A stretch of DNA of 64,000 nucleotides. Source: Elsinoe ampelina. Taxonomy: Eukaryota. The notes beneath the pieces were generated by a model. It saw only the letters and a program-made list of their open reading frames with translations, had not been told where the DNA came from and did no database searches. Of this stretch, positions 28,482-64,000 are shown piece after piece (position 1 is the stretch's first letter; each line of letters opens with the position of its first letter). The position numbers were made by a program, and so were the translations under genes. The stretch is taken from positions 628,745 through 692,744 of the forward strand of contig ML992511.1 in NCBI GenBank assembly GCA_010093995.1, in the 5' to 3' direction.

Positions 28482-29810
28482 TCAAGTGACAATCTCCCCT
28501 GAATCCACCATCTGCGCCTTCCACTTCTCTCCCTTCCTCTCCAGCTCGGCTTGCCTACTCGGCAGGCATATTTGGTCTGCGGGCGGACTGTACAAATACC
28601 AACTCCGCAATGCTTGTGCCGCTGCTCTGACTCTTCCTTCATTCAGCGTTGATCCAGCATCTTCCCCAAGCTTGTTCCTCCCACTGTACACACCGACCAC
28701 GTATACTGGTGATCTCGTTTTTCGTCCGGTCTCTGAGATGAGTCGCGCGACTGGTGCCTCGAACTGCTTACGATGGCAGAGTAGTTTGAGGTCTCTCGTG
28801 GGGTCGCGGAAGTAGAAGAGCTTGTGGAGGGGAAGGTGGCGGGAGAGAATGTGTGCGTGGTGGAAGGATTGCATGCTTGTGGCGCCGGAGTAGAGGTATA
28901 ATGCGCCAAAGACTGCTCGGATGAATTGCGCAGATGCTGCTTCGAGTGTGATGCCTGACAATGCTCTTTCTGCCGGGACCTCATCCTTCAGGTCCTGTGC
29001 CACATCCTGGTCAAGTCCGAGAGCTGATTCGTGTGTCTCGACTCCAGATTTCAGATCTCCAAATTCGTCATCGAAGACGATCCTTGACGATATGCCTCTT
29101 CGATCGTGGAACTGCTCGCGTGGTCTCCCTGTGCCTTGCGGCTTAGCCGCCCCTATCACGTCTTTCACAAGATGCTGCCTGTCACCAGCCATCGCGTTGC
29201 CTGCCGCTACCCGCTCGAATTGTAGGTATCCAACATCGACCTCTGGGCCTGGTGCATCAGCGGCTTCTACACCCCACTCTTGACGAAGCATTGCAAGTGT
29301 CTTGTCTCCGGAATAGGCGTACTGGGCAGCGTAGATGATCGGCATCGGTAGCCGTGGATAGTTGCATATCAACCATTCTGCAGTGTAGTAGGCGATGAGC
29401 TCTTGACCTAAGAGAGCCAGGGAGGCGTTGTTGTGCTCTGGTTGTCGATCGGCCGAGGGATGTGTAAGGCATCTTGCTAACGTCGAAAGGGTGAATCGTG
29501 CAGGGAGAGATAATCGAGCATGTAGAGCACCAAGCTTTGCAGAATGAAGGTCTCGATGCCGCCGCCGTGGCTGCTTCAGTTCAATTTCTGTCTCCGCCTC
29601 CTCGAAGGGCAATTGGGTCTGGGCTTCTCGTCGACAACTGCTCGAGGTGTGAAACCGATGCGAGCTGGAGGGAGTCGATACTCTTGCTATCCGACTCTTA
29701 TGACTTGACCAAGTTGCGTCCGCTGGAGCTGTCGAGGTCACGTTAATCGTCCGTGGATTTCGCGGGGGGAGGTATGCACCGCTCCATCGCCCAAACCGAA
29801 CGCGCCTCAT
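28482..29810 (-). CDS. MRPL3: Mitochondrial large-subunit ribosomal protein mL44 (RNase III-like + dsRBD)
   Basis: SAKLGALHARLSLP, HNNASLALLG, YPRLPM, FEAPVARLISETGRKTRSPVYVVGVYSG. Arg-rich presequence-like start MRRVRFGRW at 29810. Confidence 0.9.
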   Translation of the reverse strand: MRRVRFGRWSGAYLPPRNPRTINVTSTAPADATWSSHKSRIARVSTPSSSHRFHTSSSCRREAQTQLPFEEAETEIELKQPRRRHRDLHSAKLGALHARLSLPARFTLSTLARCLTHPSADRQPEHNNASLALLGQELIAYYTAEWLICNYPRLPMPIIYAAQYAYSGDKTLAMLRQEWGVEAADAPGPEVDVGYLQFERVAAGNAMAGDRQHLVKDVIGAAKPQGTGRPREQFHDRRGISSRIVFDDEFGDLKSGVETHESALGLDQDVAQDLKDEVPAERALSGITLEAASAQFIRAVFGALYLYSGATSMQSFHHAHILSRHLPLHKLFYFRDPTRDLKLLCHRKQFEAPVARLISETGRKTRSPVYVVGVYSGRNKLGEDAGSTLNEGRVRAAAQALRSWYLYSPPADQICLPSRQAELERKGEKWKAQMVDSGEIVT

Positions 29811-30045
29811 GAGAAAATTGCTAGGTCCAGTTCCGAGGATTAGGAGAAGCCGGAACGACGCTTTGAAACGACCGCGATGGTGCTTTGTGGTTTGGTTGAT
29901 ATGTGGTCGAGATCCAGTTGCCATAAAAATTTCGGAGGATGAGACTGGACGAGCTCACAGCGGCAACTCCCGCGCCGATCCACGACTTCATATGACATCT
30001 CGACATCGCCTTTCCTTTCTACACACCAATTGACAGCAACTCACA

Positions 30046-39683: not shown

Positions 39684-42600
39684 ATGGAGAGGGCAAGGAA
39701 GCGTACCGCAGTCTCCACTCTCACCTCCAGCCTCACTGACGCTCCCCAGGCGAACTGCGCGACCTCAACCTCAAGATCTGGTCCGGTGAACGCGGTACTT
39801 CCATTCCCCCCCTTCCCCCACCGAGCACCTCCTCCTGACCAACCCTCTCACAGATGTCTTCCCCACCGCCCCCTCGCTCGACTCCTCCATGAAGAAAAAC
39901 ACCACCTTCATCAAGCGCTTGCGCACCGGCATCATCGCCTCCTCCCTCCCCGTCTTCCTCGCCGAAATCAAAACCCTCTCCCTCCACAAATACCTCTCCG
40001 AGATCATCAGCGCCTGCTTCGAGGGTATCTGCAAGCTGAAATCCCCCGCCGACATCGCCGTCGGAGTCGAGGTCGTCTCTGCCCTGCACCAGCGGTTCGG
40101 CGTGGAGGAGTTCACGGCTTATCTGGGGTGGTATGTGGGGAGGGGATTGAGTATGCCTGACAAAGGGGTTTTGAAGGGGATGAGTCACGAGGTGAGGGAG
40201 AGGGAGGAGAGGGAGAGGGTTGCGCGCCAGAGGGTGTTGCTTCGAGTTGCTACGGAGTTGTGGTTGGTTGGGGTGTTGAGGAGTTTGGATGACGTGTCGA
40301 GGCCGGAGGAGGCGGGCAAGGGGAAGGAGGGGAAGGAGGAGAAGAAGAGGGTGGGGGGTAAGGGGGAGGAGGAGCCCTTGCCGTTGGAGGCGTTGAAGGA
40401 GTTGTTGGGGCATGATAGGGAGCATGCGAATTTGCCGTTGGTGGTGCTGTTTGTCAAGACATTCAGCTGGGATGTGCTGGGGAGGAAGGCGAATAAGGTG
40501 GGCGAGAGAAAGAGGGTGGCGGAGGATGGGACGACGACGACTGGGGAAGCGCGGTCGGGGGCGAGCACGGAGACGGAGGAGGTTGGGGCCGAGGATGCGC
40601 CTTTGATCGATGCGGCGCTGCAGCAGAGGTTCAAGAATGTGCTCAATCGCTATTTTGAGGACGTCAAGGCTCATGTGGCGCGAGACCAGCAACATCTCAG
40701 CTCGCAAGGGAAGCGCAATGCGGAAGCCTACGTCAAGTCGGGAGAGGTCTTCGAGGATCGTCAAGCCAACTACGAGAAGCTGGTCAAGTCACAGGAGAAG
40801 CTCGTCGCCAATGCGCAAGTCCTCGCCGATGCTTTGGGTGCTGACATGCCGGATCTGGCGGAGAAGGAGTCTGCAAACGCAGGAGGCGACGGAGGTATCG
40901 GACTTGTCAAGACTGGTGAATACCTGCGCGGTCAGACTGATGGTGCTGGTATCTGGGAAGACGACGAAGAGCGCCGATTTTACGAGAACATGATCGACTT
41001 GCGCGAGCGGGTACCTGGTATTCTTCTGGAAGATCCGAAGAAGAAGAAGACGGATGGCGGAGAGGAGGTCAAGAAGGAAGAGAAGGCTGCAGAGGACTCG
41101 ACACCAACCGAGCCGGAGAAGAAGGCAGACGCAGCAGATGATCAGTCGACTGCGATCGCCAACAAGACTGTAGGTGCTCAGGTGGACTCGCTTCTTGCAC
41201 GACTGCCTGAACTCGTCACGCGAGATCAGGTCGATCAATTCGCCATCGACTTCTGCTTTGTCAATTCGAAAGCTTCTCGCAACAGGCTAGTCCGCGCTGT
41301 TGAAGAGATACCCAAGGGCAGGGTCGATCTCCTGCCACTGTACTCACGATTGGTCGCGACTCTGAGCAAGTGTCTGCCGGACGTATCTCAAGGCATCGTC
41401 AGCCACTTGGACGATGAATTCCGCAGTCTTCAGCGACGCAAGTCGAAAGAGTTTCTCGGCCAGGTACGAATGACCAACATCAGGTACATCGCGGAGCTGA
41501 CAAAATTCGGCGTCGTCCCGGAACATGTGGTCTTCCACTGCTTGAAGGTATGCTTGGATGATTTTTCTAGGATGAACATTGAGATCATTGCGAATCTATT
41601 GGAAAACTGTGGACGATATCTCTTGAGGAACCCAGAGACGTCACCACGCATGGCTTCTTTCTTGGAGACTCTTCAACGCAAGAAGAGCGCTCAACATCTA
41701 GGACAGCAGGAGCGTATGCTCATCGAGAACGCCGTGTACTATGTCAATCCGCCCGAGCGAGCTGCGATTCAGCAGAAGGAGCGTGATCCTCTTGATCTGT
41801 ACATCCGCAAGCTCATCTACCTCGATCTGTCTAAGAAATCGCTCGAGAAGATCATCAAGCAGATCCGCAAGCTGCATTGGGAAGAACCAGAGGTACCGGA
41901 GATGTTGCGCAAGATCTTCACAAAGCCTGGCAAGATCAAGTACAGCAACGTTTACCTCTTGGCCGTCATCCTTGGAGCACTTCATCGATACCACCAGGAT
42001 TTTGCCATCTCGGTCATGGACGACTTGGTGGAAAAAATCACGGTGGGTCTAGAAGTGAATGATTTCAAAGCTAACCAGAAACGCATCGCAGAGGTCAAGT
42101 ACCTCGGCGAACTGTACACTTACCGCATGGTGGACTCTACTCTCATCTTCGACACACTGTTCAAGCTCTGCAACTATGGTCATCCAGGAGGACATGCTCG
42201 TCCAGGCTCGATCTGTCCGATCGATTTGCCGGATGATTTCTTCCGCATCAGGCTTGTAGGCGCACTGCTTGAGACTTGTGGCTCTTTCTTCGAGAAGGGC
42301 GCCGTGAGGAGGAAGCTTGATTTCTTCCTCATGTTTCTGCAGGTAAGGAACTTGTTCGATTTCTCTCCGTCGGTTCATTGACCATTTAGTACTATATCTA
42401 CACCAAGGATCCGATGCCCATGGACATCGACTTTCTGGTACAGGATACGTTCGCACAGCTTCGGCCTCAGTGGAAGTTGGCGACGAGCTTTGACGAGGCG
42501 AGTCAGAAGTTTGCAGAGGCTTGTAGGCAGAATTACCAGCATACTGCTACTGCGAAGGAGCAGGAGCCGGAAGAGCCAGAGGAGTTACCTTCGTCTGATG

Positions 42601-46140: not shown

Positions 46141-47690
46141 TATTAACTTGTGTAGGGGAGGAAAAAGGATTAATTACTAACTACACCACTAAAATAAGGT
46201 AGATTATAACTATATAAATACTTAACCTAGTATACTAAAAGATAGCTAAATTAAAAGAACTTCTTAATAGTAATAGATTAAGACAATAATTATCTAATTT
46301 AATTATAGATTAGTAAAATAGTAAGATAGTATTTAGTTTAACCTTAGGATGAACTAAATTAGAGTCTTCTTAGCGCTCTAGCTTATACCTTAGTTAATAC
46401 ACCCCTTTACTAAATAGCTATAAGACTATTATAGCTAGTTAGTAGACTACTAACTCGAGGGATAGCTATTATAAGAAGGCCTTATACCTTCTAGGTAGTA
46501 ATAACTTAATTAATCTATTAGCTAAGGTGTCTACTAATAGTGTCTATATTACTAAGATAGNNNNNNNNNNNNNNNNNNNNNNNNNNNNNNNNNNNNNNNN
46601 NNNNNNNNNNNNNNNNNNNNNNNNNNNNNNNNNNNNNNNNNNNNNNNNNNNNNNNNNNNNNNNNNNNNNNNNNNNNNNNNNNNNNNNNNNNNNNNNNNNN
46701 NNNNNNNNNNNNNNNNNNNNNNNNNNNNNNNNNNNNNNNNNNNNNNNNNNNNNNNNNNNNNNNNNNNNNNNNNNNNNNNNNNNNNNNNNNNNNNNNNNNN
46801 NNNNNNNNNNNNNNNNNNNNNNNNNNNNNNNNNNNNNNNNNNNNNNNNNNNNNNNNNNNNNNNNNNNNNNNNNNNNNNNNNNNNNNNNNNNNNNNNNNNN
46901 NNNNNNNNNNNNNNNNNNNNNNNNNNNNNNNNNNNNNNNNNNNNNNNNNNNNNNNNNNNNNNNNNNNNNNNNNNNNNNNNNNNNNNNNNNNNNNNNNNNN
47001 NNNNNNNNNNNNNNNNNNNNNNNNNNNNNNNNNNNNNNNNNNNNNNNNNNNNNNNNNNNNNNNNNNNNNNNNNNNNNNNNNNNNNNNNNNNNNNNNNNNN
47101 NNNNNNNNNNNNNNNNNNNNNNNNNNNNNNNNNNNNNNNNNNNNNNNNNNNNNNNNNNNNNNNNNNNNNNNNNNNNNNNNNNNNNNNNNNNNNNNNNNNN
47201 NNNNNNNNNNNNNNNNNNNCTTATAACTTAGATAGCTAGAAACTAGCTTAGATCTCTAAGCACCTTTATCTTATATTTAGTATAGAGAGCTATAATAATA
47301 GTATTAGCTTTCTCCTTATGCTTCTTAAGATATATAATAGTAATATTATTTATAAAGAAGAAGATTATTACTTTAAGTATTATCTAGAGGTATAGAGCCT
47401 TAGGGGCTTAAGTAAATCTAATGCCCTTTAGAGTAGTAGTAAATTTAGTATACTAGAGAGCTAAGGCTTACTTTAGGCTATATAGTGCCTTATTAAGCAA
47501 TAGAATTACCTCTAATAGAGTAATACTAGAATAGTCCTTTATAAGATTCTCTACTACTAGCTTAAATCTAGTAGAGATAGTATAGTAGGTAGTCTTATTA
47601 ATAGGACTATTAATATAGGCATTAATAATATCTATCTAGATAGCCTTTATGTTTTTATAAGTAAGTAATGCTATAAGCATTCTAAAGATC
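46141..47690 (-). mobile_element. RIP-inactivated Ty1/Copia retrotransposon, 3' part (RT, RNase H, PPT, 3' LTR), spanning the assembly gap
   Basis: Minus-strand remnants *IDIINAYINS (QMDVxNAY), LLNKALYSLK*A (LxKALYGLKQA), FFFINNI (FVDD), LRDLS*FLAI (LGDLSWFLGI) and LANRLIKLL (LADGLTK). PPT AAAGGGGTG abuts an LTR at 46141-46399 with inverted termini TATTAAC...GTTAATA (RIP-converted TG...CA). Confidence 0.88.
46561..47219. other. Assembly gap (N run)
   Basis: Run of n characters. Confidence 1.
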
Positions 47691-50600
47691 CGTCACGAAA
47701 TCCCTAACGCTAGGGAGCTACATTAGACTACTTCTAAGTAACTAACTTAGTTTAACTTAGTTTAATACAATCCCCTAGTTACCCCTAGGCCCTACTTAGA
47801 AGCAATATAGTTTTTCCCCGCAGAAATCTAAAAACCTCTAATACGTAGCAAATAGAGACGGCCTAATAGCAGATAGTGCACTACGTATATCTCTTATCTT
47901 AGTTTAAGCGTTTCTTAGTTCGCGAAGTAATTAGTTCGTGTCTACTCTATAAGCTTAATAATATCAATTATAGAAATATTCTATTACGTAGCTTACCTTA
48001 TAGTATATATTGTATATGTCTATATATTATATAGACCTTATAATTCGTTTACTACGTCTAGAAAATTATATAAGGTCGCTAGAATACATGTATTACTTTA
48101 CGTTCTACCTAACGCTACTCTTAATAATGATATATATACTATCTTCTTATAATTCTATATTCTTATCCCTTAGTTCTATAAAAGCATCTCTATCTAGCGG
48201 ATGTCTATCCTCCTTAATGTCTAAGATACTACTACTATGCTTTAGGCCGATTTAGTACTATAAGACTAGTTTACGTAGTAGGCCTCTAAACTTCTTACGT
48301 GTAAAGGATAAAAAGTTTATCTACGTCCGTGTACCTAAGAAATTCTTCTACTACGCCTTGACCGCTAGTAAATCGCTATTAAGTTGTCTATCTTAGGACA
48401 GTATAGTACGCGTATAATTAAGTAGCCCGGGTGAATGTCGCTATTAAGTCTATTAATCCTCGTATATACTAACTATAACCTAACTTAGTTTAGTAGTAGT
48501 TAAAGTTATAACAAGGTTACTATCTATATTAGGTATCTACGCTAGCTATACTTCTATTGTAGGAGTTACTATAGGGCGATTTAGTACTTCGCTCCTATAT
48601 ACGAACTAAGTAGTACCTTAATATGCTATAATAGGGCATTCGGCCTTAATTAGACACTCTTCTTGATCTATTAGTATTAAACTTAAGAAGCTAATAGAAG
48701 AATTAAGCTTACCTCTTAAAAGGTGCTTAGTAGAAGTATTTCGTACTAGTGCTGTATAATAGCTATTACCTCTACTATTAGGCCTGTTATTACATACCTA
48801 ACTTCTCTATAAGTTAGTTTAAAGTTAGGTAGGCCGAACTAAAACGAGAAGGTATATATATACCTTTCCCTTGTATCCTCTCTATCTAATAGTCCCTCTA
48901 TAGTGTTAGTATAAAGAGATATATTTAACACTACTACTATAATAGTAAGTCTATTTCTCTCGACGTACTTAGCAAAGCTAAGTTTTAGCTAACAAAGGAT
49001 AAGAACCTATCTCGGGCTAATCTACACTAGGAAGTTATTTTAAATACTTAGTTAGACATAATTAAGTTCTAAAGGTTTTATATGTTTAAATACTAGCGTT
49101 CCCTTAGGTAAGTAGGACTTAACCCCGTCTACTTACTTAACTAAGAGTATATAAATCGTTACTAGGAGAGAGAAAATAAGAAAGAGTATTAGTTTATTAA
49201 AGTAATAGCAAGTGCTAGCTATTATAGCTAAGCCTATATGTCTAATAAAGGCTACTCGGAAGGCTTTATATATTAAAGAACTCCTAAAGTATTTACGCTA
49301 CTATATGTAAGTAATTAATTAATAAGTATATCTAGCGCGTACTAAATTGCTATCCTTATATTAGTACTTTCTTTTCTCTAGTAGCCTACGTACCTAATTC
49401 GGTAGCTCGCTATTCTCTAGCCTCTTAGCTAGCTATTTGTAGTAGAGCATCTTACTTACTATTTATGTAATATTATTATAACTATAGCGGAGTGCCTCTC
49501 GGAGCTACACGTATGTTAATAAGTAATTAGCTTTAGCTACGTAACCTACCTTACTAGCTATAACTACAGAAGAGTATTTACCTATAGTTCTCTATAGATA
49601 AAGTACTAGTAGCCGGTTACGGACTAAGCGCTAGTACTGTGTAATTCGCGGGAGTAGCTATTAATCGTCTAATGTTAGTAATATTGTATTATAATCTACT
49701 CTAACGGCTGTACTTATATATAGATTATTACGTACTACCTCGAAAATGTCGAGATACTAGTTTAGTACGTTCTATTGCCTCTACTTTACTATCTTAACTA
49801 GCGTAGAGGCTAATATTAGACTATTCTCGTCGGGTTATAGCTCCCTTAAACTTGGATCGAGAGTAGTAATGTCTAATTTATACCTTCTCCTTTGTCTTCG
49901 ATGTTATATTTATAGCCTACGTAGTTAGCTTAGTCTCTCTTAATGCTAAAGCCTTACTCTACTTTATCCTAGTTAAAATAACCTAAATTGTCATCTTCGG
50001 AATACTTATTAGTCTTATAGTCTAAGCTATATAGGCACTAACGTGCCTAAGACATCTTAGTTTATAATAGTTCTAATAAAGAGGTATATAGGTGTAAGAG
50101 AGTTAGTAAGGCAGGCCGGAATAATATATACTATAAGAGGGATAGATAGTTATCTTATGTATGTTATAGTAATTTAGTATTAGTTTAAGTTAGATAACGG
50201 CTTAGTTAGGTATTTAGAGTGTATAACTTTCTTCTAATTAGAATTAGTTATATCTGCCTATACCCTAAAATAATCTTAACTAGTAAGGGTATTAAATTAG
50301 ACTTGTAGCTAGGTCTAACTCGCGGAGTGCTAATTGCTAGAAGCTAAACTAAAAAAGAAAGCTACTCGAACTTACTTAAACTAAATACTCGAACTAAATA
50401 TAGTATTTGTTATTAGGTTAAGTAATAATTAAAGTAGAAATACGTAGAGAGAAATTATAGATTAAACTTAGACTAAGCAATTATACACTAATTCGAAAGA
50501 CTATAGGAACTAGCTATTATATATATAGACAGGTAGTATAATTTATATAGTAGCTCCCTTATTAATTACGTTAGTAGTCCCCCCTTTACTAAGTAGTATA

Positions 50601-52466
50601 TCTTCTAAGTGCTAAAAGTATTAATTGCTTACTATCTCGCTATCTAGAGTGTCCGAATAAGATACGCTAGATAGAGTAGCTTATCTTCTACTAATTATAT
50701 TATAATAGAGAGCAGGCGTCGATTAGCTGTTAGTAACTATATATAGTAATAGTAGAGTAGTACTGTTAGTATAGCGTCGTGTACCCTTGTTTAATCCGAA
50801 TAAGCCCCTTAATACTCTACTAGTAAGGTCCGTAGAGGCGACGCTAAACGCGTAAAAAGCTTTACTAATATACTCCCTAAGTATATTATTCTCTTACTAG
50901 AGTTATCCGATTAAGCTTACGTTCTTCTTCGCTATTAATCGTAATTAGCCTACTTCCTACTAAATAAGTATAATGTCTTCCTCTAGGAGTTACTATCTAT
51001 TAAGCTATTTAGGCTACTAGGTCCTATGTCGCTTTTGCTAGCTACTAACGTAATTATACTCTTCTCCGTACATATATAGTAGAGAGCTTCTAATTTAAGC
51101 CTCTAGCTAGTTAGGGAGACTATTAGAAGACTATGCTTTAATACCTAAATAGATAAGAGAAGCCTATATACTTAATCCTATAGTCTAGATGTTAGCCGCT
51201 AGAGAAATAAGGTCGGTATAATCGATATCTATACTTAGGAGCCTAGCTAAAAGATACTAATAGACCTAACAGATTAATAGTAGAAGGATAGATAAGTAAT
51301 TTCAAAGGGCAATTTAGTTAAAAGGTAAGGAAGGATAAAGCGTAGTAAACGAACTAAAACTCTAGGGTTTAGTAGTAGATATAGCTTAGCGTAGATTGCC
51401 CTACTACTTTTTAGTTTAACTTAGTCTACTACTAGACTATTCTCCTTTATGCTTACTTTAGCTAGGTACTTTCCTTAATCTCGTTGCCTTATTAGGATAT
51501 AAAGAGGTAAACTATATAATATCTTAGACAAGATAATAGCCTTAAACTAGATAGTATTCTCTATTATAGCGAAATATAGCGTTCTATTGTCCTTTTAACC
51601 TATAACATTGCTTTGCTTATTGTATATATAGTAGTCTGTTATAATTAATATTACTCTTAGCTAATCAAACTTAATATCTATATTCTCCTTAGACACGGTA
51701 GTTGTAGCTTTATAACGTATAAGTAAAAGATCTCTAATCGAGTAGATAGGACGTATCTCTCTATCCTTACGAACTACTAATAGTATGTTGTCTAGTTAAT
51801 TAGAGAGTAAAGGCACTTATAATTACAATTAGCAATTCGAGGATTTATTCGAGGTAAGCGTATTAGCACTATTCTACGCTCCTCTAGGCTTATATAATCT
51901 TAAGTATAACTATACCTACTAACGTCTAAAATTAGTACTTATCTTATAGACAAGAGCATAGAAGGCAGCTTAACTGTCGCTACTCTCTAAGAGCTCTATT
52001 GTACGCCGAAACGTGCACCGAATATTATTACTATCTAGTGCTACTAGAAGTACCTTCTTCTCTAACTTTCTCCTATTAGAAATCGACCTAAATATTCTTC
52101 TAACTATACCTTTGCCTATTATAATATCCTCTAAGAGACTATATAAGTCTCTATAGCCTTTATTGTTAAGAGCAAGGGCTTACTTAATAGCTTTAATTAA
52201 GTATATTACTAGTTAATAAGAAGTAGATATAGGTATAGCTACGGAGGAGAGGAGAGAGGTAGAGGTAAGAGAGTAGCAGTATAGGTAGCAATTCGGTGTA
52301 AGTGTTGCTTACGATAGATAAGCCTTAGATCTTAGTTTACTTACGAGAGGGGCATGCTAGAATTATGCTTAGTTATAATTAATTAGCCTAAACTAATACT
52401 CGTAGAACTACAAAGTTCGATATGCTAAACTTTATCTTTTCTTAGTTTTGTCGTATACTTATTACG

Positions 52467-53266
52467 TAGCGACATAACTATATTATAAATACAATTCGTA
52501 ATAACGCCTTAGTTTGCGCCCTCCGCTTATACCGACCTAAACGTAGGTATTAGCGTCCCTAGTATAACCTTTTCTCTCCTCTCTATTCGACCTTAATAAT
52601 AGCTAGCTATCTATTATAGCAGATTCCCGCGCCTAGTATACTACAATTATTAATTGTTATATATACTATAGCAACTCTAATATTTACTCCTACCTCGCTG
52701 TTGCTACTACTTCTAATAGTATTCTCTATACTAGCTATATCGTGTTTATAGAATTAACTACTACTAGTACCTAGTAGTTACGCCGGAGTAAATCTATTAT
52801 AGTATACCTCTCTATCTTGCCTACTACGCCGCTATAGGCTTAAGGGTGCGTAAGGAGACTTCGATATCTCTTTCTCTCTCCCTACTACCGCTACTCTCTA
52901 TAGCTTCCTTTATACTAGCTATATATTATTAGTAGGATTAGCTACTATCTCTACCTAGTAGCTACGACTAAGTAAATCTATCGCGGAGTATCTCCCGATC
53001 TTATAGATAGCGCTACTAGGGGTTCTAGCATACGTAAAGAGAGTAGAGGAGCTAGCGTCTACTAGGAATTACCTGCCTTATAGTATAAGAATATTAAGGG
53101 GAGAATTACGGAGGAATAACTAGTATAATAAAGAGAAAGAGACAGAGGTATATCGTAGGCAAAGATACATCTACTACCTCCTACTAGATAGTAGCTTACT
53201 ATAGAGAGCGTCGTAGGCGGAGCTATATTAGTAGTATTCTCTTTTATAATTGCTTTTATAGCAGGG
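52467..53266 (+). repeat. ~800-bp direct repeat, copy 1 (copy 2 at 59640-60438)
   Basis: Colinear, nearly gap-free match at an offset of ~7173 bp; differences are mostly transitions. Confidence 0.95.
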
Positions 53267-54076
53267 TTTTGTTATTAGTAGTGCTTTGTTATAACTTTCT
53301 TACGTTAGTAATATACTTCTTTCTACGTAGATTGTATATCTATTACTTTAATCTCCCTCCTCTAACTAGTAAATAAAATCTCCTTATCTAATATATATAA
53401 GTATACTATATATCTTTCTTTATTCCTTGTTATTTGTCTTATCTCCTATCTACTATAAAGACATTAAGGTTGTTACTTTACACAATAATGCTCTTTGTTA
53501 AATAGTTCGCTAGCTGTTTAAAGTATATATAACTTTATATATAGTACTAATATATAAGTGTTTAGTATAGTTAATTACTTCGACACTAATTTTCTGTAAT
53601 AATTAGCACTTATAACATTCTCTAATAGCTATGTTTTGTTTGCTTACCTAATTTACACCCTATAATATTTGTTAGTAGTAAACTAACTTATTTACTTTTA
53701 GTTCTAGTATCGACCTAATATTAGTAATTATTACGTGTTACTATTAGCACGTACGAAATATAGACTTAGTTAACTTAGTTTACTTTTAGGTCGAGGCCTA
53801 AACTAGATCTTAGTTATAAGTGTACTACTTACTTTAGTATATTATCTTAAATACAAATTTTATTATATTTAAGAAGTTACTACCTACTTTCTATATAGTA
53901 TTTTAATATTATACTAGGTAGTAGGTATTTATAATTACTACTGTTTACTCTATAGTACTTAACTTACTACGCTTAGTTCCTAGCTATATAATCTTAACTC
54001 CTCTAACCTTACCTGCCTTATATAACGCCTTTACTAGTAGACATTCTTATACTTATTAAATATATATAATAGCACT

Positions 54077-55402
54077 ATACTGCCGAAGATAAAGAAGCTA
54101 AAGGTCGCTACTAAACCTATAGAAAAGATTCTACTTAATAACCTTATACTAGCTCTTGTTAAGAATACGCTTTATAATAATAATATTAGTAAGAAATCTA
54201 TCTAATTCTTCTTTAATTAGGATAACTAGTAATACTCTACTACATTTACGAGGATAAAGAAAATAATCTTAAAAGTCTTTATAGAATCTAATATTAAAAT
54301 TAAGAAACAAGACAGAAGCGAGTTATATAATCCTAAGGTGCTTAAAGCATATCTTAAAATTGAAACTAGACTACTAAATAGCATACCTAACAATTTCTAG
54401 CTCTTTGTTAACCGACTAGATCGGAAAGATCTAGACTAGTTTAAGGAGAACTTACGGACTATAGTTAATATTAATAAGATAAAAGCTATATAGCGATTAT
54501 TCCGAAATACTATATAATTAATAAGGGCAAATCTCCTATTAGTTAAAAGGGAAAGAATAACGTTACTAGGTAAAGAAGGCACCTAGAGTCTATATCCTTT
54601 AGCTACCTCGTCCGTATAGACACTAATGCTCTTCTAAGTAAGAACACCATCCTCGGAGAGATATATAACTTGTGTAAAGACAGGTAATAAGAGATTAGAT
54701 TTGTATATATAGCCTCGTTATAGAATGTTTAGCTTTAACTAGGGGCTAGTGTCTAATTATGTCTAGATTAACATTAAATTCGCTACGATCTAGATTATAG
54801 AGATTATTAAAGCAGATACTATTCCGTATCTAATATTAAGAAAGAACATCCGCGTCTATGACTTAAGAAAGCCTAGTACTAGCAAGGACAAGAATTGTTG
54901 TGTTAATTACTATATCGGTAAGCTTAGGTAGATTCTTAACATTAGAGATAATTACCTCTAACTCTACTAGCTTAACATATATAACTCCGCATAAGTCTTC
55001 GCTATTAAAGACTCTTTCGATCTAGACGCCGCTATTACTAAGTATGTTATAACTCTTATCCCCGGTGCCTATAAGATCTTTCTCTATCTTACTTCTTCTA
55101 TAGTATCTATTAAAGATCTTCTCGACTTTATATAAAGTAAGTTTACCCCTTTCCTATTTATCTATGTATACTAACACTTATAGACAACCCTTATTAATAT
55201 TATAGTGGCTAGCAACTACTTCCTTTAGCCGAGGTTACTATAGAAGAAAACTCGGAAGTGTTTCTTACTCCTAAGAAGCTTTGCTTTATAGATATTAATA
55301 CTAACAAGAAGCGTAAAGGAGATTAGTAGAAAGAGAATATTATAATATAGAACATTTAATACCCGCAATAGCGACTAAACCGCTAAAGGCAAGAGCGGTA
55401 AT
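54077..55402 (+). pseudogene. RIP-destroyed gene A of unknown family, paralogue of the N-terminal part of gene B
   Basis: One reading frame from ATA (ex-ATG) 54077, an intact-looking 47-nt intron 55137-55183 (GTAAGT...CTAAC...TAG), and colinear peptide similarity to the 61.3-62.5 kb frame. The end point is approximate. Confidence 0.75.
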
Positions 55403-58400
55403 ACTACTATATTTTATTTGCTATTATGTTATTTATAAAACTGTTTAGTTCTTAACTAATAAAGTTTTATTTAGCTCGTTCTGCCCCTAAGAGCCTATAG
55501 CCCCTATAAATCCTGCGATTTCCGTTATTATTATTAGAAGTAAACTTACTTAATAGTTCTATAACTATAGCTAGACGGATTTCAACTAACCTAGCAACTT
55601 AGTTCGGAGTGTAGTTTTACTTTATATAGTTTTAGAAGAATATAGCTCCTTCTCCCCTACTAGAAGAACATAGCCTATTTAGACTATAGTATATACTACT
55701 AAGGCGCTATTTATATTTCTACTACTTTAATAGCTTAAAGAATATTATATAAGCTACTATATACCTAAGGCCGGCTATCTATCTAGATAAATACGATCTC
55801 TCGGAGCTCTCTAATACCTCTTCTAAGTTTCACTTTATTACTAGTAACTTCCTATAGCCCGCCTAGTACGCTATAACGTATTATAGTAAAGAGAGCAAGT
55901 CCGAGAAGATAATAACTTACTTCTACTAACACAAGATTAACATCGGTATTAAAAAAGTAATATGTTCTTAATATTATTAACAATAGAAACGAAGTAATGC
56001 CACTATAGATACAATAGACTAGAGCGTTTAATAATAAGTAAAACAAGTTAGCGAGATAGGATCTTATCCCCTATTATAGTAGAAGCAATAGTATAAGTTT
56101 TAGTTCTATACCGAACTTAGAGTTAACTAAATTAAATAAGAATAGTATAGTGCTATAAAGAAGCGCGTAGGTGTTACTACTAACATAGTTATTAGGCTTT
56201 ACTCTTATATACTAGCAAGGTTTATACGTAGTATACTTAGAAGTTAATAAAGAATTCCCGCCGACTATTATTAGTTCTAGCTACTACCTCCTAACAAATA
56301 GCAAAGATACTTTAGGTCAGGTTACGCCTCTTAACTAAGTATAAACTTAAGTTAGTTTAGTTAGCCTAAAACTAGAGACAAACTTATTTTATATTAGGGC
56401 GGATAAGTTCTTTAAGGGAACACTATAACACCTAGCTATCTTATACCTCTCCTTGTTAGGCAATTGCTACTTAGTATTAGCATAGCTCTACCGACTATAT
56501 ACGTAGGTTTAGTATTAAGCTTAATATTTAATATAAGGTTAATTACACCGAGAGAAAGGGATTAGATACCTACTACTTAACGAAGGTAGCTTTGACATAG
56601 TAGAGCTAGTCTCTATCTATAGGCAGTAAAGACGTACCTATTATAAAGAATAAGAGAGGATAAACTAGACACGATTTAACTTAATATTACTATATAATAT
56701 AATAAGAGGTAGCTCTCCGCCTATACAAAGGTAATATAAGAATAGTTAAAGCCTATCGTAGCTCTCTTTTCGTAAATATAATAGTTACTTCTTGTTTCTA
56801 GTTCGAAATCTTCGTATTAGTCCTTATATAGATAGCTAGACTTCTATTTATTCCTCTTAACATGTATCTTGACCTAATTATAAAACATTTAGTAGCTACG
56901 CTTGCTTTTATGTCTTATTAGGTTTAAGATATTTCTAACTAGGACTCTAAAGTTTTAATCGAGGATAGATATCTTATTTCTTTAGCGGCACTATATATAT
57001 AAATCGCTTCGCGCATAGGGGAGTATACCTTAACTACGATTATAGAGACGCTATATAGGAGAGAGTAGTATAGAATAATATCTATATTTAATAAGTAAAA
57101 GGAACCTAGAGGTAATTATACTAGATGTTATTACAAGCTTGCTTTATTTACTCCGCCGCCTCGCTAGTATAGAAAGAGTAATAACATTAACTAATATTAT
57201 AGCAGGGGCTATAAATACTTCTTAGACTTTATACCTCGAGCTAAAGTAGTAGATAAGCATATAGCTAGCGCTACGCTAGATTAGAAATATAGGGCCTTTA
57301 TGTTATTATTCCTAAGATTATAGAATAGAAAGCCTATAGTTAGAAAACTAAGAGGTAGTAAGGGATTATTCGTGTATATAACTCTATAGCGCTAGCAGTA
57401 GCTATAGTAGTTAGTTCGACTTAGTTAGTCTAGTTCGGTTGTTACTAATAAGAGAGCTACATCTACAATAACTTAAGAGAATCCCGAATAGCTAAGCTAT
57501 CGGAATTAGTAAAGGTACTAAAGTTATCGTTGTTAATTATAGAGAGAAGTCTATAGTAAGCTACGTAGGTATTATTAGAGTAGCTATATCGAAGTAAACT
57601 TACTTCGAGAAGGCTACGCTAGTTAGTTTATAACTAGGAATAGCGTATAGTTCTATAACAAGTAGAGTACTAGTGCTTCTACCTTAATAGTGTAACTTCG
57701 CTTAACACAAAGTTAGTGTGTAGATCTAATTATTATAGTAGACTTCCGATAGTGCCTTAGAGAATATAATATTCGCTAGCGTAGATATAATAACAGCGTT
57801 TATGCTTAAGCTAACTATACTATCCTATCGGCTAAAGAAGTAAGTTAACTATAGCTACGATACACTAACGATAATATAGAAGGTTATATAAGACAATATA
57901 GCAAAGCAAACGAACTAAAAGCGTAGTTGTTTAAACTAATAGAGGAGTAATAGTAAATTATTAGTTTATCCTTGTTAAGATTGGTTAAGGGAACACTTAC
58001 AATTTTCACCTAAAAAGCGCTAGTTTTAGTTTAGCGAACTAATTAACTACCCCTAATAGATTAACTATAGGTATAAACGACCTAATGTTATACAGCCGAG
58101 GCGTCTTTATATACCGCTATTACTATTTTTTTGTAGAGGCTATTTATAACTAACTTATTACAATACTAGTAACAAGTCGAGACACGAGATAGTAAGAGCT
58201 ATAAATTGTTTACTAGCTGAAATTATTATGCCTAGGCGGCACTCTCTATTTTATAATTGCTATAAAAGCCTCTACTAAGAACAATAGCGCGACAATAGCT
58301 AATTAAGTATAGTATTTAACATTGTTCTTAAGCGAGAGATAGCTAATAAACTCTATCGCCTAGATATATTAGAGCAAACTCTGTCTCGATGTGTCTAGTA

Positions 58401-59323
58401 CTATAGCGTAGATATAATTTTAGCTTTAGTCCGCCGACGCTATACAATAGCTTAGTCCTATTAGCTCTACTACGAATTACGGTAAATAAGAACCGAACTA
58501 AGTAACGAGGTAGAAACGATAGCCTATAGCTAGCGTTAGGTGTCCTTCCCCCTTTGCCTACTATATAGTATAGTATAGTAGATAATTCTCTTAGTCTCTT
58601 TACTAACCTCGACCCTCGACCTCTAGCATATAGAACAGATAGTAATAGTAATAGTAGGCTCGATAGTGACATATATAAGGAAGAGAAGAGCATAGACAAG
58701 GTTATAATAGAAGGCACGCACGAGAAAGAGTAAGTAATTACAGTAAGTATAACTAGTAGCACGTCTATAGGGCGGAGTACTAGGAGGTTGTTCTTATCTA
58801 GTAGAGCTATATCTAATTATACTACGTTCGAGATAGTAACTAGTATACTAGCTAGTAGCGAGGAGTTAGTAATAGACATAGTTTATCCTTAGTTTACATT
58901 AACTAATCTTGTCTAGATCTCCCTAAGTCTATAATATATCCTTCGCCCCGAGCGATTAATAAGATATAGCTTAGCTAGGGACCCTTAGCTCGGCGCTCTA
59001 ACGTTTAATAAAAGGCAAGCTACTAACTTAGATAAATAATTTTAATTCGAGTTAGGTCGTCGTAGTAGAAGTGCCTTCTAGTAGAATACACTTGCCGTAG
59101 ACTACTAGCCTCTATATAATGTTCTAACAAATCTACTTCTACCTACGTAAGGGTACTAAAGATATGTCTAAGTTACATACGCGAAGGCTATAGTAGTCTA
59201 ACTAATAGTAAAATAGTATTTACTAGTAGGAAGCTTACTCGGCTTAAATTTAGTAGTATAAATCGTTGCTTTACTCTATCTCTAGCATGTTATATATAGC
59301 AGTAGTAGAGGGCGGCCGGTAGA

Positions 59324-59512
59324 GGACAGCTAGTAGTTTATTACGTCGAACTAACAATTTCTTAGTTCTCTCTCTCGAAGTTTAAAGATGATCTAAAATT
59401 TCGACCTAACTATAGCTAGTAGGGGATAGCTAGTAGTTTATTACGTCGAACTAACAATTTCTTAGTCCTCTCTCTCGAAGTTTAAGGATGACCTAAAATT
59501 TCGACCTAACTA
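59324..59512 (+). repeat. Tandem duplication, 89-bp unit with 100-bp period
   Basis: GGA(C/T)AGCTAGTAGTTTATTACGTCGAACTAACAATTTCTTAGT...AAATTTCGACCTAACTA at 59324-59412 and 59424-59512; about 4 transitions. Confidence 0.95.
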
Positions 59513-59639
59513 GATTAAGTACTCCTCGGAACTCAATTATATAATGCTATCTAATTATGTTCTTCTCTAAAGTTAAGTATTGTATGTTTAGAGACTTATA
59601 ATCTTTATAACATTATAAACGCGTTACAAACCCTGTTTA

Positions 59640-60438
59640 TAGCGATATAACTATATCGTAGACACGATTTACTATAACGCCTTAGTTCGCGCTCTCTACT
59701 TATACTAACCTAAATATAGATATTAGCGTCCCTAGTATAACCTTTTCTCTCCTCTCTATTTAACCTTAATAATAGCTAGCTATCTATTATAGCGGATCCC
59801 CTGCCTAGTATACTATAATTATCTATTACTATATATACGATAGCGACTCTAATATTTACTCCTATATCGCTATCGCTACTACTTCTAATAGTATCCTCTA
59901 TACTAGCTATATCGTATTTGTAGAATTAACTACCGCTAGTACCTAGTAGTTACGCCGGAGTAAATCTATTATAGTATACCTCTCTATCTTGCCTACTACG
60001 CCGCTATAGGCTTAAGGGTGTATAAGGAGACTTCGATACCTCTTTCTCTCTCTCCGCTACTACTACCCTCTATAGCTTTCTTTACACTAGCTACGTATTA
60101 TTAGTAGGACTAGCTACTATCTCTACCTAGTAGCTACGACTAAGCGAATCTATTACGGAGCATCTCCTAATCTTATAGATAGCGCTACTAGGGGTTCTAG
60201 CGTATGTAAAGAGAGTAGAGAAGCTAGCGTCTACCAGGAATTACCTACCTTATAGTATAAGGATATTAAGGGGAGGATTATAGAGGAATAACTAGTATAA
60301 CAAAGAGAAAGAGATAGAGGAATATCGCGGGCAAAGATACGTCTACTACCTTCTACTAGATAGTAGCTTACTATAGAGAGCATTGTAGGCGGAGCTATAC
60401 TAGTAGTATCCTCTCTTACTATTACCTTCCTAGTAGGG
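59640..60438 (+). repeat. ~800-bp direct repeat, copy 2
   Basis: Matches 52467-53266. Confidence 0.95.
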
Positions 60439-61322
60439 CTAGGCGAGGAATAAAGCGCATTTATAATTATGTAGAATGTACTATTAACTGCCTATTCCGC
60501 GGAATGTATAGCCTTTACTCTACCCTACTACTCGATTCTATATATAGCAATTATAAAGTCTAAATAATTAGATAGTAGTATATTACTTTCTTTATTCCTT
60601 TACTAGTATCTATAAGCTATACTATACGCTATATATACTATGCCCTTTATTCCGCTATAGGCTACTAACTACCTTCTATTTATATTCTATTGCTATTGTC
60701 CTTTATATACGAATACTAGTTTCGCTATTAAAATATTATTTAATTATTTTACATTAACTACTACTATATTCTCTCTATTTATTAGACTATTATCCCTTAA
60801 GATCTACCCTAAACACGACAATAGTATCCTTAGTGTATACGGCATATAAAATAAAAGGTAACTAAGTATATAGACTATAGTTACTCTTAGTTTAGTATCT
60901 AAACTAAGTAATCTACTATTACATGTATACTGTATCTAGTATACTACTACGTGCTTAGTTTAGGGCCTAACCTAAGTCGACTAAATTTAGGTTACTTCTC
61001 TCTTTAATTGCTTTAGTTTACCTTTATTTATACTCTCTTATATATAAACAAATAACTTATATAGCTCTCTAGTATTTCTTTAACCTCTTTAACCTCTCTT
61101 TTAAGCGCTCTTTACTTAAATATCTCCTCTTTAGTTAAGTCTTAGTTAGGCATATATTATAAAGTACATAGACTTGCTATGTTAATAAATCCTCTCTTTA
61201 ATTCTTCTAAACTTATAAATACGTAACACCTTTATAGAATCTCTTCTTTAATATCTACTATACCTACTTAACCTATTTACTAGATATTATTCTAAGCTTT
61301 ATTTATAGCATATACTAAGCTT

Positions 61323-64000
61323 ATAGACGCACGTAATATGTCTAAGAATTAGCCTAATAGCGCTAGTATAGCTACTAATAACATTCCACTCTACGAAAGA
61401 CCTCCTATAGAAATTTAAGTATAGCTCAATAAAAACCTTAAGATTAAGAGATTCTTCCTTAAATTCTTTAACTAGGACAATAACTAGTACGCCGCCGCAC
61501 GCGTAAGAGCGTAGAAAGAATATAAGAATACCTATATAGTTCTAGGACTTAAATATAAGGAACCTTAGGATAGTAATGTTAATATAACTACAATTATAGA
61601 TAATATTAAAACTTCTCTACGATACTCTTAGGATAACTATACGAAGATCTTCTTTTAAAGACTATACTATTAAGACTAAGACTAGTTTAAGAGGAACGTT
61701 AGAAACTATAATAATATATCTAGTTATAATATTATTAAAGATTTTGTCCTTACTATTAAGGCGTAAGAGCTTAGGAATAAGAAGAATTAGACTAAAGTAG
61801 ACAAGAAGGCTTATCCTAAGAAGCATATTAGAAAGTGCCTCTTCGCTACCTAGTCTAATAGCGGACTCTCTAAAAGATTAGAGACTTCTATACTTAGTAG
61901 CAGACTTATAGGCATAGATATTAATTACTGCACTAGTTAGCCTATACATTAGTAGTAAATGCTAGAGGACATGTCTTATCTAGTCTAGAGCATTATCGAT
62001 AAAACTATTATTAACTTTATAATTGTTAAGTAATTAGACATTAGCCTAGGCATAATTATAAAGAGAGAATGTTCGTGTCGTCTATAAGCGTTTAGTCTAA
62101 GAATTTTAAGGTTATATCCGGAGGATTATAATCTAAACGTATATAGCCTTAATAATATTAGGCTATTCCTAAAGGAGAAGAAGTTAGTTAGTAATAACAT
62201 TATCCTTATATAGATAGATTATATAGAGCTATATAACATCCTACCTATCTTAGACAACTACGACCTACGTGCTGCTATAATTAACTATATTAACTCTCTA
62301 GTTAAAGGTAGTAATGTAATTTTTGTCTATCTTACGCCTAGTATAGATCTAGTTAAGAAGCTCCCTAAAGAAGTACTTTATAAGTTTAATACTTAGTTCG
62401 ACTTAGGTATATACTAATATACTTAGTTAACTCTCTTTAGTATTATAATAGTTAGAAGCTATCGACTCTAGTCTAGGAGGAAGAGGAAGAGAAACCTCTA
62501 GCCCTTCTATCTCTAGCTAAGCGCCTACTACTGTGTAAATCTACCTCTAAGAAGTAACCTAGCTCTCTATTACCTAACGAGGATAATACTACTATTAACT
62601 ATCGTCCTACTCGGGTAATAGAAGACAAATACTATAAGTAATACTAAGATAGTAATTAGTATCCCTTTATAATTATACCTAGCAAGGAGCAAGTAAGGTA
62701 CTATATTCTATTAGTCTCTAAGACGCTATCTATACCTATTCTAGCACTTATAACTTACACATTTAATAAGACTCTTAGTAGCTTAGACTTTGTTAAACTT
62801 TATACTATAAACGACAATAACGACAAGTAAACTAGTAATAATCTAGCTAACTAAAGCTTTATCTCTATAGGCACTAGAATCGATTACTAGTCCGAAGAGT
62901 TCTAGGAGAGAGTCTATAACTTTATAGGCTTTAAGAAAGACATCTACTTACCGAACGCTAGTGTATAGTATTTTAGTTAGAATAAGAAGTATCTAGTCGA
63001 GGTAGTATAGATATACTTAGCGCTTATTACACTTAAGAAATACCTCGAAGGCTATCTAGTATTTATGTTTATATATAAGATAGAATTTAGAAAGACTCCG
63101 ATAGAACTCTTCTTTCTCTTACTAATTTAGAACTTAAATAAAAAAGTTATCTAGGATACTAACTATACTACTATACCTAAGAACAAGTAGAGTAAGTACT
63201 AGAAGGTAAAGACACTAGTTAACGAGCTATAGCTAGATGTCGCTTCTATAGATACTATTAGCTATAATCTAATTATTAGCGAATTAAATGTAATAAAATA
63301 GTAAGCGTAGGAGACACGGAAGTTTATACCTAATATAAAGGTCGTCCTATACTAGAGAAGGATATTCTAAACTATATAAGAATATAAGTATAGCAACGTA
63401 TATAACATAGACACTTTAATTCGCAAAGAGGATCTACCTATAGACTACCGCTAATAGGAGTCTTAGCTAATAGATAAGTCTAGTAAGCCTATCGACACTA
63501 TTATAGTCTTATAACTAGTTAATATATATAAGCGACACTCTCGGACCTTATAGATAAATAATTAGTTCTTCTTCACTACTTATAACACTATAATCTACTA
63601 CTTCCTTAGTAAGAATAACGTAAATGCCAAGGATTAGAACTTTGTTCCTAAGGGACAAGAGAGAAAGCCAAGGTCTACGCCTATAAACTAGGCCGCTATT
63701 ATCTTTAATAAGTTCTATTAGGTTACTAGCTAGAAGACGTAGACCTAGTATTGTCTAGGAATACTACCGGGGAGGCCTTTTATACTAGGCATAAGTAAGA
63801 CGCTATTTGTTAAGTACTTAAACATAGTAGCGTTCTTAACAGCGGCTATATATAAGGACTTTAGATTAGAAAAGCTTAATGTAAATAGAAGTAGAATAGG
63901 AGAATTTAACGAGAACTATATCTATAAATCTAAGTAAGAGCTAACTAAGGCTAAGAATAATAAACGTTAAGCAATACTAAAGATAATACTAGATAAGACT
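61323..64000 (+). pseudogene. RIP-destroyed gene B: unknown N-terminal domain fused to a SNF2-like SF2 helicase (runs off the window)
   Basis: Continuous frame with a 47-nt intron 62380-62426. *AAIIFNKFY* at 63689-63721 reverts by RIP rules to WAAIIFDEFHQ (motif II), preceded by FFTTYNT (TTYD) and followed by LGISKTLF (LGMSxTPF, motif III). Confidence 0.75.

Follow-up and report, generated by a model that had tools for sequence, protein, structure and literature searches.

An 800-nt block common to two diverged, RIP-degraded repeat units of Elsinoe ampelina

Near the end of a 64,000-nt stretch of Elsinoe ampelina DNA, which was analyzed as a whole and is called the window here, two direct repeats of ~800 bp each lie upstream of a same-strand pseudogene. 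The repeats are close to one another in sequence and the pseudogenes are strongly diverged, which raises the question of how conserved upstream DNA came to head diverged coding DNA. The initial annotation took the repeats for a homogenised promoter or recombination module heading gene cassettes inside a large mobile element. The reading preferred here, with a probability of roughly 0.55, is that two adjacent same-strand dead copies, belonging to two lineages that split anciently within a single superfamily of transposable-element-like repeats, lie in a RIP-degraded island. The features of the island are collected in Table 1.

The AT-rich island (GC, 0.2 to 0.35) adjoins a GC-normal core region. 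Against RIP thresholds of ~0.89 for TpA/ApT and ~1.03 for (CpA+TpG)/(ApC+GpT), all 8 segments of 47 to 64 kb show values of 1.71 to 2.0 and 0.15 to 0.34, respectively; the core region (positions 1 to 46000) has 0.54 and 1.28. Contigs from two public sequencing runs of the organism (X1 and X2), which represent one sample that may be the assembly's own source, cover 16.8 kb of the island in 30 of 30 bins, with 11,779 contigs from X1 and 8,438 from X2 at a likeness of at least 80%. Where X1 contigs differ from the window, 1,130 transitions stand against 19 transversions, and at the differing places listed, the window's own letter is the minority among the contigs. The summed contig depth, which does not equal copy number and gives no ratio of block copies to body copies, is alike over the block, unit A, unit B, and the upstream DNA, but the depth at single places ranges from 688 to 20,553, so that flat bin means hide large differences. 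RIP-diverged contigs are present on every part of 47 to 64 kb, so that block, leaders, the two genes, and the DNA upstream are all multicopy repeats. By its indices as well as by its multiple copies, whose differences are mostly C-to-T and G-to-A changes, this is RIP-affected repeated DNA. The two genes, lying under multicopy contigs, therefore belong to two repeat families and are no cargo, which removes the basis for gene cassettes. Stops at ~8 per 100 codons throughout leave them no current function; the locus is ordinary repeat-island debris and not a working gene-cassette system.

The island resembles the AT-rich isochores of the Leptosphaeria maculans type, RIP-degraded transposon mosaics of Pleosporales, in the position of an AT-rich block beside a GC-normal housekeeping region, in the extreme RIP indices, and in the multicopy nature of every part, with copies differing by transitions. 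An excerpt of a published account describes a few families in that compartment, each covering megabases (PMC4210507). In contrast to those mosaics, the families found here match no named family, and no RT or other domain was recovered from them.

Alignment of the region with itself (blastn) gives 88.75% identity between block A and block B over 800 columns, and a repeat search found the same pair, divided into two parts. The 90 differences comprise 81 transitions (T/C, 26; C/T, 22; G/A, 18; A/G, 15), 8 transversions, and 1 indel, so that transversions amount to ~1% of the block (8/800). With transitions making up 81 of 89 substitutions, this agrees with the initial annotation, which had described direct repeats differing mainly by RIP-type transitions. 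A transition-tolerant local alignment of the blocks stops at 53268/60440, which indicates sharp block edges. Block A holds an internal 184-nt duplication (~52639 to 52899 versus 52823 to 53083). The left flanks of the blocks show no detectable homology (z of 0.5 to 1.4 against a null from real AT-rich pieces), and an exact 24-mer from the block had no match among metagenome contigs. The blocks are separated by 6,373 nt and offset by 7172, which corresponds to a period of ~7.17 kb for the block-headed units.

Right after the block, identity falls from 89%, with almost only transitions, to ~55% in the bodies of units A and B, where transversions are about as common as transitions; the contrast between conserved block and diverged coding DNA drawn by the initial annotation is thus borne out. 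The similarity of the bodies is colinear at offsets of 7243 to 7315, from ~53.95 to 56.57 kb in unit A, and successive 700-nt tiles reach z values of 5.9, 5.5, 4.2, and 2.8 against real AT-rich pieces. Such pieces and dinucleotide-preserving shuffles served as nulls, since a mononucleotide shuffle is too lenient here, with unrelated real pieces reaching z values of 3 to 8.6. Between block and gene lie 824 to 990 nt, in line with the ~0.8 to 0.9 kb first given. Within this leader, the block diagonal (offset 7172) ranks 1st of 1,362 with a 30-nt window and 1st of 1,342 with a 40-nt window, but only 6th of 1,302 with a 60-nt window. The leader register consists of one patch of 22 to 40 nt, whose score was reached by 26 of 200 dinucleotide shuffles and is not significant alone. 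Read from these alignments, units A and B are in register.

The peptide strings quoted for the two pseudogenes are all present in the translations, and the homology of A and B stands. It is not confined to the protein level, as had been claimed: the antisense frame in the same register equals or outscores the exon 1 frame originally proposed, and does so over a greater length (BLOSUM scores of 231 versus 160), so that the similarity resides in the DNA as much as in the protein. Conservation of the codon-position-2 type in the proposed register (48/84 versus 34 and 39; 38/57 versus 23 and 26) supports past coding of exon 1 in two of three segments; the third segment shows no bias (36/68, 36/68, and 29/69). 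The exon 2 segments give no consistent fit to the proposed exon 2 frame. The residues opposite each stop, meant as a strand test, were uninformative.

The 47-nt phase 1 intron reported for both genes is real. The intron of gene A is the only strict signal match on either strand of 47220 to 64000, and the splice signals of the intron in gene B differ from it by RIP-type transitions only. Its retention in both copies marks the plus strand as the transcribed strand.

Table 1. Positions of the repeat units and neighboring features within the window
Feature	Position	Strand	Basis
N run of 659 (assembly gap) between GC-normal core and AT-rich island	46561..47219	.	
Other RIP-degraded multicopy repeat DNA without detectable homology to units A/B	47220..52466	.	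RIP indices, contig cover, no colinear homology, blank Pfam scan of + frames
Block A, 800 nt, putative terminal or 5' module	52467..53266	+	Self-alignment, repeat search
Leader A (spacer), strongly diverged from leader B; in-register patch at 53407-53428	53267..54089	+	Leader comparisons
Gene A exon 1, pseudogene, ~8 stops per 100 codons, ~347 codons	54090..55136	+	Translations, alignments
Gene A intron, 47 nt, phase 1, GTAAGT...TACTAAC...TAG	55137-55183	+	Motif search, A/B alignment
Gene A downstream part, colinear with B, frame uncertain	55184..56570	+	A/B alignments
Rest of unit A; B counterpart past window end	56571..59639	.	
GC-richer stretch in rest of unit A	58343-58979	.	
100-nt x1.9 tandem repeat in rest of unit A	59319-59512	.	
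Block B, 799 nt	59640..60438	+	Self-alignment, repeat search
Leader B	60439..61342	+	Leader comparisons
Gene B exon 1, pseudogene	61343..62379	+	Translations, alignments
Gene B intron, 47 nt, homologous, ATAAGT...TACTAAT...TAG	62380-62426	+	A/B alignment
Gene B downstream part, runs off window	62427..64000	+	Translations, A/B alignments

The preferred reading would give each unit one layout, in which the 800-nt block is followed by a leader of ~0.8 to 0.9 kb, a gene with the 47-nt intron, and a tail. The block would belong to the elements themselves as a terminal or 5' module and would most likely carry promoter and/or mobilization sequences, and the A and B lineages would have it in common through recent common ancestry of the module; a block in front of a B-type body is known from one copy, within the window. 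The module may have been exchanged by recombination between the lineages, or elements may have recombined with one another through it, which would explain the head-to-tail order as well, or a terminal repeat may have been duplicated during transposition. RIP would then have struck the duplicated block, leaving transition differences at ~10% of its sites. The word "homogenised" used for the block is not distinguishable from module exchange between lineages or duplication during transposition.

An alternative would make unit A (7,972 bp) a canonical LTR retrotransposon of the Ty3/Gypsy or Copia type, with the blocks as its 5' and 3' LTRs and with unit B as a related element joined to it by LTR-LTR recombination (LTR-A-LTR-B). 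This is regarded as unlikely, even if the geometry is that of an LTR element: direct repeats of 800 and 799 nt flank 6,373 nt, within the 4 to 9 kb expected of an interior. Almost all block differences are RIP transitions, as for LTRs identical at insertion, and exon 1, with ~347 codons, would be gag-sized, the frame change at the intron marking the gag/pol boundary. Repeat islands of a similar kind in Leptosphaeria consist mostly of LTR elements, according to an excerpt of the same account (PMC4210507). Both blocks start with TA and end with CA (block A) or TA (block B), followed by a shared GGG. TG...CA turns into such ends under RIP, so that the missing TG...CA, used by the initial annotation as an argument, does not speak against LTRs; the termini are compatible with TG...CA after RIP without proving it. 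The conclusion of the initial annotation that the blocks are not obviously LTRs is nevertheless supported by other signals, of a kind that RIP does not erase. The search for a target-site duplication of 4 to 6 bp found none: TTACG precedes block A and CTAGG follows block B, and alternative edges are no better. In the 60 nt preceding block B, purine runs reach no more than 5 nt, which equals the background median (5; 90th percentile, 8) and leaves no polypurine tract. Past a shared GGGYT, the leaders differ even in purine/pyrimidine class, which excludes a common primer-binding site; the window holds no tRNA genes for comparison. A conserved spliceosomal intron would be unusual in gag-pol.

Protein-family searches give no signal for gag-pol either: no Pfam family for protease, RT, RNase H, or integrase was hit in the scanned frames, where the sensitivity of detection is doubtful. 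With stops read as X, 0 families were found in the plus frames of 47220 to 53266 and 55133 to 59639; in single plus frames of 54041 to 55132, 61419 to 62399, and 62600 to 63999 (above the cutoff); in 63380 to 63997 and three frames of 56080 to 57401 at E values up to 10; and in the minus frames of 53267 to 59639 and 59640 to 64000. These negatives are weak, since the scanned frames of the 17-kb island yielded no domain of any kind that could serve as a positive control. A match to PHL (PF20474; E value of 0.015, below its cutoff), according to the search listing a PH-like domain of DNAJC13/RME-8, was treated as noise, and a literature search for "PF20474" found no mention.

Comparisons with sequence collections were similarly blank. 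Exon 2 of gene B had 0 phmmer hits among 1.84 billion representatives; exon 1 of gene B gave 975 candidates of near length and 2,675 longer ones in a word-indexed collection, none with an E value of ≤0.01. Among PDB sequences, the A frame had 0 hits and the A+B profile one meaningless hit (E value of 0.49), and Rfam returned one irrelevant match (E value of 0.34). RT motifs seen by eye (IDYR... and PF.L...F.K.LN) were confirmed neither by HMMER nor by a RIP-aware motif test and are considered pareidolia. Motif counts for Gypsy, Copia, LINE, Helitron/PIF1, and YR elements, with RIP allowed for, all remain at chance in a method too permissive to classify, and the protease, RT, RNase H, and integrase motifs form no ordered series (RT4, 0 versus 1.0; INTe, 2 versus 1.5). 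RIP blinds the homology searches that were run, and the units are for this reason assigned to no element class. The transposable-element label is based on copy number, RIP, and architecture, and not on a transposase or RT.

Yeast Ty multimers are tandem LTR retrotransposons with a common LTR (LTR-internal-LTR-internal). The locus shares with them LTR-sized direct repeats, the ~7.2-kb period, and a second body, related to the first, that follows directly on the middle repeat. It differs in the lack of a polypurine tract, common primer-binding site, target-site duplication, and RT or integrase signal, in the intron within the gene, and in bodies that are ~55% identical versus 89% for the repeats. 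Ogre-type LTR elements of plants carry an intron inside gag-pol. Similarly, the short intron described here is located where the reading frame changes, after a gag-sized first ORF, and splicing could set the ratio of short to fusion product; Ogre elements are a plant lineage, however, and RT and integrase were not detected in the units.

The view of the initial annotation, in a form that treats block-A-block-B as part of a large composite mobile unit whose old paralogues are headed by one gene-converted 800-nt promoter or recombination module, is improbable. The block does open both units in register, the jump in divergence at its edge is the expected trace of a conversion tract or of module replacement, and the similar summed depth over block, A, B, and upstream DNA would be compatible with one large repeat unit, though contig depth gives no copy number. 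A conversion tract, however, would need homology to the left of the blocks, where none is detectable, and the flat bin means conceal the wide spread of depths per place. Separate families reach similar total coverage in genomes of the Leptosphaeria type, as stated in an excerpt (PMC4210507). In the scanned frames, Pfam detected neither a recombinase nor any other gene of mobile elements, and all copies are dead. An integron-like array would combine unrelated cargo genes with recombination sites and a recombinase; here the two "cassettes" share homology and are multicopy, with no recombinase found by Pfam. For Helitrons (Rep HUH with two Tyr plus a PIF1-type helicase), the motifs are at chance in a low-power test and Pfam gave no hit; in place of 5' TC and 3' CTRR ends, the unit edges read ...TATAG followed by CGA....

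Two other groups of retroelements share single features with the preferred layout. Mammalian LINE-1 lineages show modular exchange of 5' promoter regions. The block likewise is a 5' module with internal tandem subunits (184 nt here) common to lineages with diverged coding parts, its promoter being putative; in contrast to LINE-1, no ORF2, RT, or endonuclease was detected, no A-rich 3' end precedes block B, and a LINE would not be expected to contain a conserved spliceosomal intron. The tyrosine-recombinase retroelements Ngaro and DIRS have long direct terminal repeats without classical primer-binding site or polypurine tract, as found here, and tend to insert into their own copies. Their A-pol-B-A-B layout (A1-ORFs-B1-A2-B2) is absent: the comparison of DNA left and right of block B scores 78.5 (shuffle mean, 67; maximum, 89.5), the sequences following the two blocks are instead homologous in register, and no RT or YR was detected. 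For filamentous ascomycetes, an excerpt of a survey mentions only a single truncated Ngaro element, from Neosartorya fischeri (PMC3783388).

A more far-reaching and distinctly improbable proposal is that A and B represent an unclassified superfamily of intron-bearing mobile elements of filamentous ascomycetes, with a 5' module that is swapped between deep lineages and directs head-to-tail joining through recombination. The module, with its doubled 184-nt subunit, would serve as promoter or as terminal recognition sequence. The frame-shifting intron would set the ratio of short to fusion product, with unspliced RNA giving a product of exon 1 only and spliced RNA a long fusion, in place of ribosomal frameshifting. 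It is scarcely credible that the block represents a small element in its own right (a MITE, a solo LTR, or a SINE-like repeat) that was inserted independently upstream of genes A and B: its two sharp edges and the internal duplication, a type found in many promoter-bearing repeats, would fit, but neither block has a target-site duplication, the left flanks are nonhomologous, and with leaders in register at offset 7172, independent insertions would need to hit the same homologous base.

RIP-degraded islands are a common, well-described compartment in some plant-associated ascomycetes. Two things about this one are mildly informative: the step in transversions from ~1% to ~20% at the block edge, a clean example of the mosaic evolution of repeat families, and a spliceosomal intron kept across two old lineages of a multicopy element. 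For annotation, the polypurine tract and the primer-binding site can be tested by purine/pyrimidine class, which still works in RIP-mutated DNA, unlike the search for TG...CA. Less degraded relatives, if they exist, could tell a known superfamily blurred by RIP from a new one.

The GC content of the window is ~0.53 up to ~46 kb and falls to 0.2-0.35 over the remainder, with a 659-N assembly gap exactly where the GC-normal core, which carries ordinary housekeeping genes, meets an AT-rich repeat island. Every segment from 47 to 64 kb shows a TpA/ApT ratio of 1.71-2.0 (0.54 in the core) and a (CpA+TpG)/(ApC+GpT) ratio of 0.15-0.34 (1.28 in the core), which marks the island as filamentous ascomycete DNA saturated by repeat-induced point mutation (RIP).

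Features of the window (empty cells, not given)
Feature	Positions	Strand	Part
SKN1/KRE6	6415-8145	minus	core
Csf1/BLTP1-like ORF, 3150 codons	12437-21889		core
EF-G-like GTPase	23264-25441		core
RNase III/dsRBD protein	28482-29924	minus	core
Cullin	36671-38989		core
MIF4G protein	39889-42381		core
PLD motif			core
Assembly gap	46561-47219		boundary
High-depth stretch	47220-47779		island
Weak dot-plot pair	48686-50007 and 53861-55132		island
Block A	52467-53266	plus	unit A
184-nt duplication	52639-53083		block A
Leader A	53267-54089		unit A
Intron A	55137-55183		gene A
GC-richer stretch	58343-58979		unit A tail
Longest stop-free frame	58343-58816	minus	unit A tail
100-nt unit, x1.9	59319-59512		island
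Block B	59640-60438	plus	unit B
184-nt duplication	59804-60263		block B
Leader B	60439-61342		unit B
Intron B	62380-62426		gene B

Self-comparison of the region returns a single strong pair, blocks A and B, with 88.75% identity over 800 columns. The ~800-bp direct repeats of the initial annotation, said to differ mainly by RIP-type transitions, are thereby confirmed: the 90 differences comprise 81 transitions, 8 transversions, and 1 indel, and the mutation load is about equal in both copies. Transition-tolerant alignment stops within 2 nt of the block edges. CpG-type sites and CpA/TpG sites both carry these transitions (15 of 48 C/T differences precede G, and 16 of 33 G/A differences follow C), contexts that are approximate, as neighboring bases may be mutated too. 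Each block contains a tandem duplication with a 184-nt period; its subunits are ~77% identical to each other and ~90% identical between the blocks, which makes this duplication older than the block pair. A further tandem repeat, a 100-nt unit with 94% matches, lies ~130 nt upstream of block B.

Downstream of each block follow a leader, an intron-bearing pseudogene (gene A or B), and a tail. Here, the two units are colinear at offsets of 7243-7315, from ~53.95 to 56.57 kb in unit A, with z values of 5.9, 5.5, 4.2, and 2.8 for 700-nt tiles against a null of real AT-rich pieces; tiles upstream of the blocks reach only 0.5-1.4 against the same null. The bodies beyond the blocks share only ~55% identity, with transversions about as frequent as transitions, compared to 1% transversions in the block pair. 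RIP generates transitions only, which dates the divergence of the bodies, but not that of the blocks, to long before RIP, in agreement with the previously noted contrast of conserved block and diverged gene DNA.

The peptide strings quoted for the genes are all present in the translations. Likeness at the protein level alone, as had been claimed, does not hold, since the same-register antisense frame does equally well or better across a longer span (a BLOSUM of 231, versus 160 for the proposed exon 1 frame), and the resemblance is thus as much one of DNA as of protein. Position-2-type conservation fits the proposed register in two of three exon 1 segments (48/84 versus 34 and 39; 38/57 versus 23 and 26) and supports past coding there; it is absent from the third (36/68, 36/68, and 29/69) and shows no consistent fit to the proposed frame in the exon 2 segments. 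The 47-nt intron of gene A (GTAAGT...TACTAAC...TAG) is the sole strict signal match on either strand of the 16.8-kb island. The homologous 47 nt of gene B (ATAAGT...TACTAAT...TAG) differ in these signals by RIP-type transitions. Both introns are in phase 1 with an equal frame shift, and their conservation settles the transcribed strand. The shared intron therefore stands as first described; the matching protein after it is reduced to a weak similarity in an uncertain frame. With ~8 stops per 100 codons, the genes give no sign of present function. Upstream of block A, a pair of weak colinear signals in the dot plot, at offsets 5175 and 5125, might point to a third gene copy of even greater divergence; their scores of 34.2 and 30.8 are within the noise range and were judged not significant.

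The blocks have the geometry of long terminal repeats (LTRs) of a retrotransposon around the interior of unit A (800 + 6,373 + 799 nt), identical at first and then subjected to RIP. The missing TG...CA ends, originally held against LTRs, are a weak objection, since the block termini read TA...CA/TA before a common GGG, which is consistent with TG...CA ends altered by RIP. That the blocks are not obviously LTRs is upheld by features still testable because transitions never alter purine/pyrimidine class: no polypurine tract precedes block B (purine runs in the 60 nt to its left reach at most 5, the background median), and there is no common primer-binding site (past GGGYT, the leaders differ even in purine/pyrimidine class), and no target-site duplication (flanks TTACG versus CTAGG). 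Reverse transcriptase (RT), RNase H, and integrase are absent from the Pfam results, a weak negative given that the scanned frames of the 17-kb island yielded not a single domain, whatever its kind; RIP has probably blinded profile searches there. In a RIP-aware scan that allows for all ancestral codons obtained by reversing C-to-T and G-to-A changes, motif counts are at chance level without an ordered series. RT-like strings spotted by eye failed both scans and were rejected. The conserved spliceosomal intron is likewise atypical of gag-pol, with a plant precedent in Ogre.

Had a complete unit A merely come to lie next to unit B, leader B would be out of register with leader A. Among all leader A-leader B diagonals ordered by best window, that of the blocks (offset 7172) ranks first among 1362 for 30-nt windows, first among 1342 for 40-nt windows, and 6th among 1302 for 60-nt windows. 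In the second half of the leaders, the top match has an offset of 7238, which adjoins the 7243-7255 of the genes. The in-register patch is short (22-40 nt), with a score reached by 26 of 200 dinucleotide shuffles and not significant alone. The alignments give moderate support to both units starting with the block and to leaders in register, a position that disfavors chance adjacency as well as a third element inserted twice independently. The units do not show the A-ORFs-B-A-B layout of Ngaro; passages in PMC3783388 mention, for a filamentous ascomycete, only one truncated Ngaro element, in Neosartorya fischeri.

A phmmer search with gene B exon 2 gave 0 matches among 1.84 billion representatives, and a word-indexed collection queried with gene B exon 1 yielded 975 candidates of near length and 2,675 longer ones, none at an E value of 0.01 or better. 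PDB sequences and Rfam gave no meaningful match. The Helitron, Copia, LINE, and YR motif sets likewise gave no support, and a 24-mer taken from the block had no match in metagenome contigs. The single Pfam match, PHL, listed as a PH-like domain of an endosomal protein, was subthreshold and treated as noise.

Of the sampled words, 0.57 and 0.55 are present in two public runs of the organism, X1 and X2, which are one sample and possibly the source of the assembly. On the island from 47220 to 64000, 11,779 (X1) and 8,438 (X2) contigs of at least 80% likeness cover 30 of 30 bins; variable places in X1 comprise 1,130 transitions and 19 transversions, and the window's own letter accounts for just a few percent of depth at the listed places. 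This cover and the transition-type differences identify the block, the two leaders, the two genes, and the sequence preceding block A as multicopy, RIP-diversified families. Contig depth does not equal copy number (bin means look flat; per-place depths are 688-20,553) and was therefore not used to count blocks per body. Summed depth over the 560 nt right after the gap is ~5x that of the remainder (57,024 and 54,316 versus roughly 8,000-15,000), which suggests a different, more abundant repeat. In unit A, the GC-richer stretch of the tail, at ~2x (18,893 and 24,609), contains the island's longest stop-free frame (157 codons) and is possibly a piece of some other repeat nested there.

The observation of the initial annotation is thus confirmed and its interpretation partly supported. 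An array of cargo genes finds no sign, every part including both genes belonging to multicopy repeat families, and the homogenized module survives only in a weakened, transposon-internal version, neither cargo cassettes nor a recombinase being seen in the region. The simplest account would be two dead copies in head-to-tail order that belong to two old lineages of a single repeat superfamily, both built as block, leader, gene, and tail, with a common ancestor of the block much more recent than that of the bodies. A terminal or promoter module may have been swapped between lineages by recombination, a mosaic evolution of the family; the elements may have recombined through their common module, which would also explain the head-to-tail order; or the block may have arisen by LTR-type duplication. 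RIP would then have hit the duplicated 800 nt. The region amounts to commonplace repeat debris degraded by RIP; its mosaic structure is neat, and its intron-bearing gene is unclassified.
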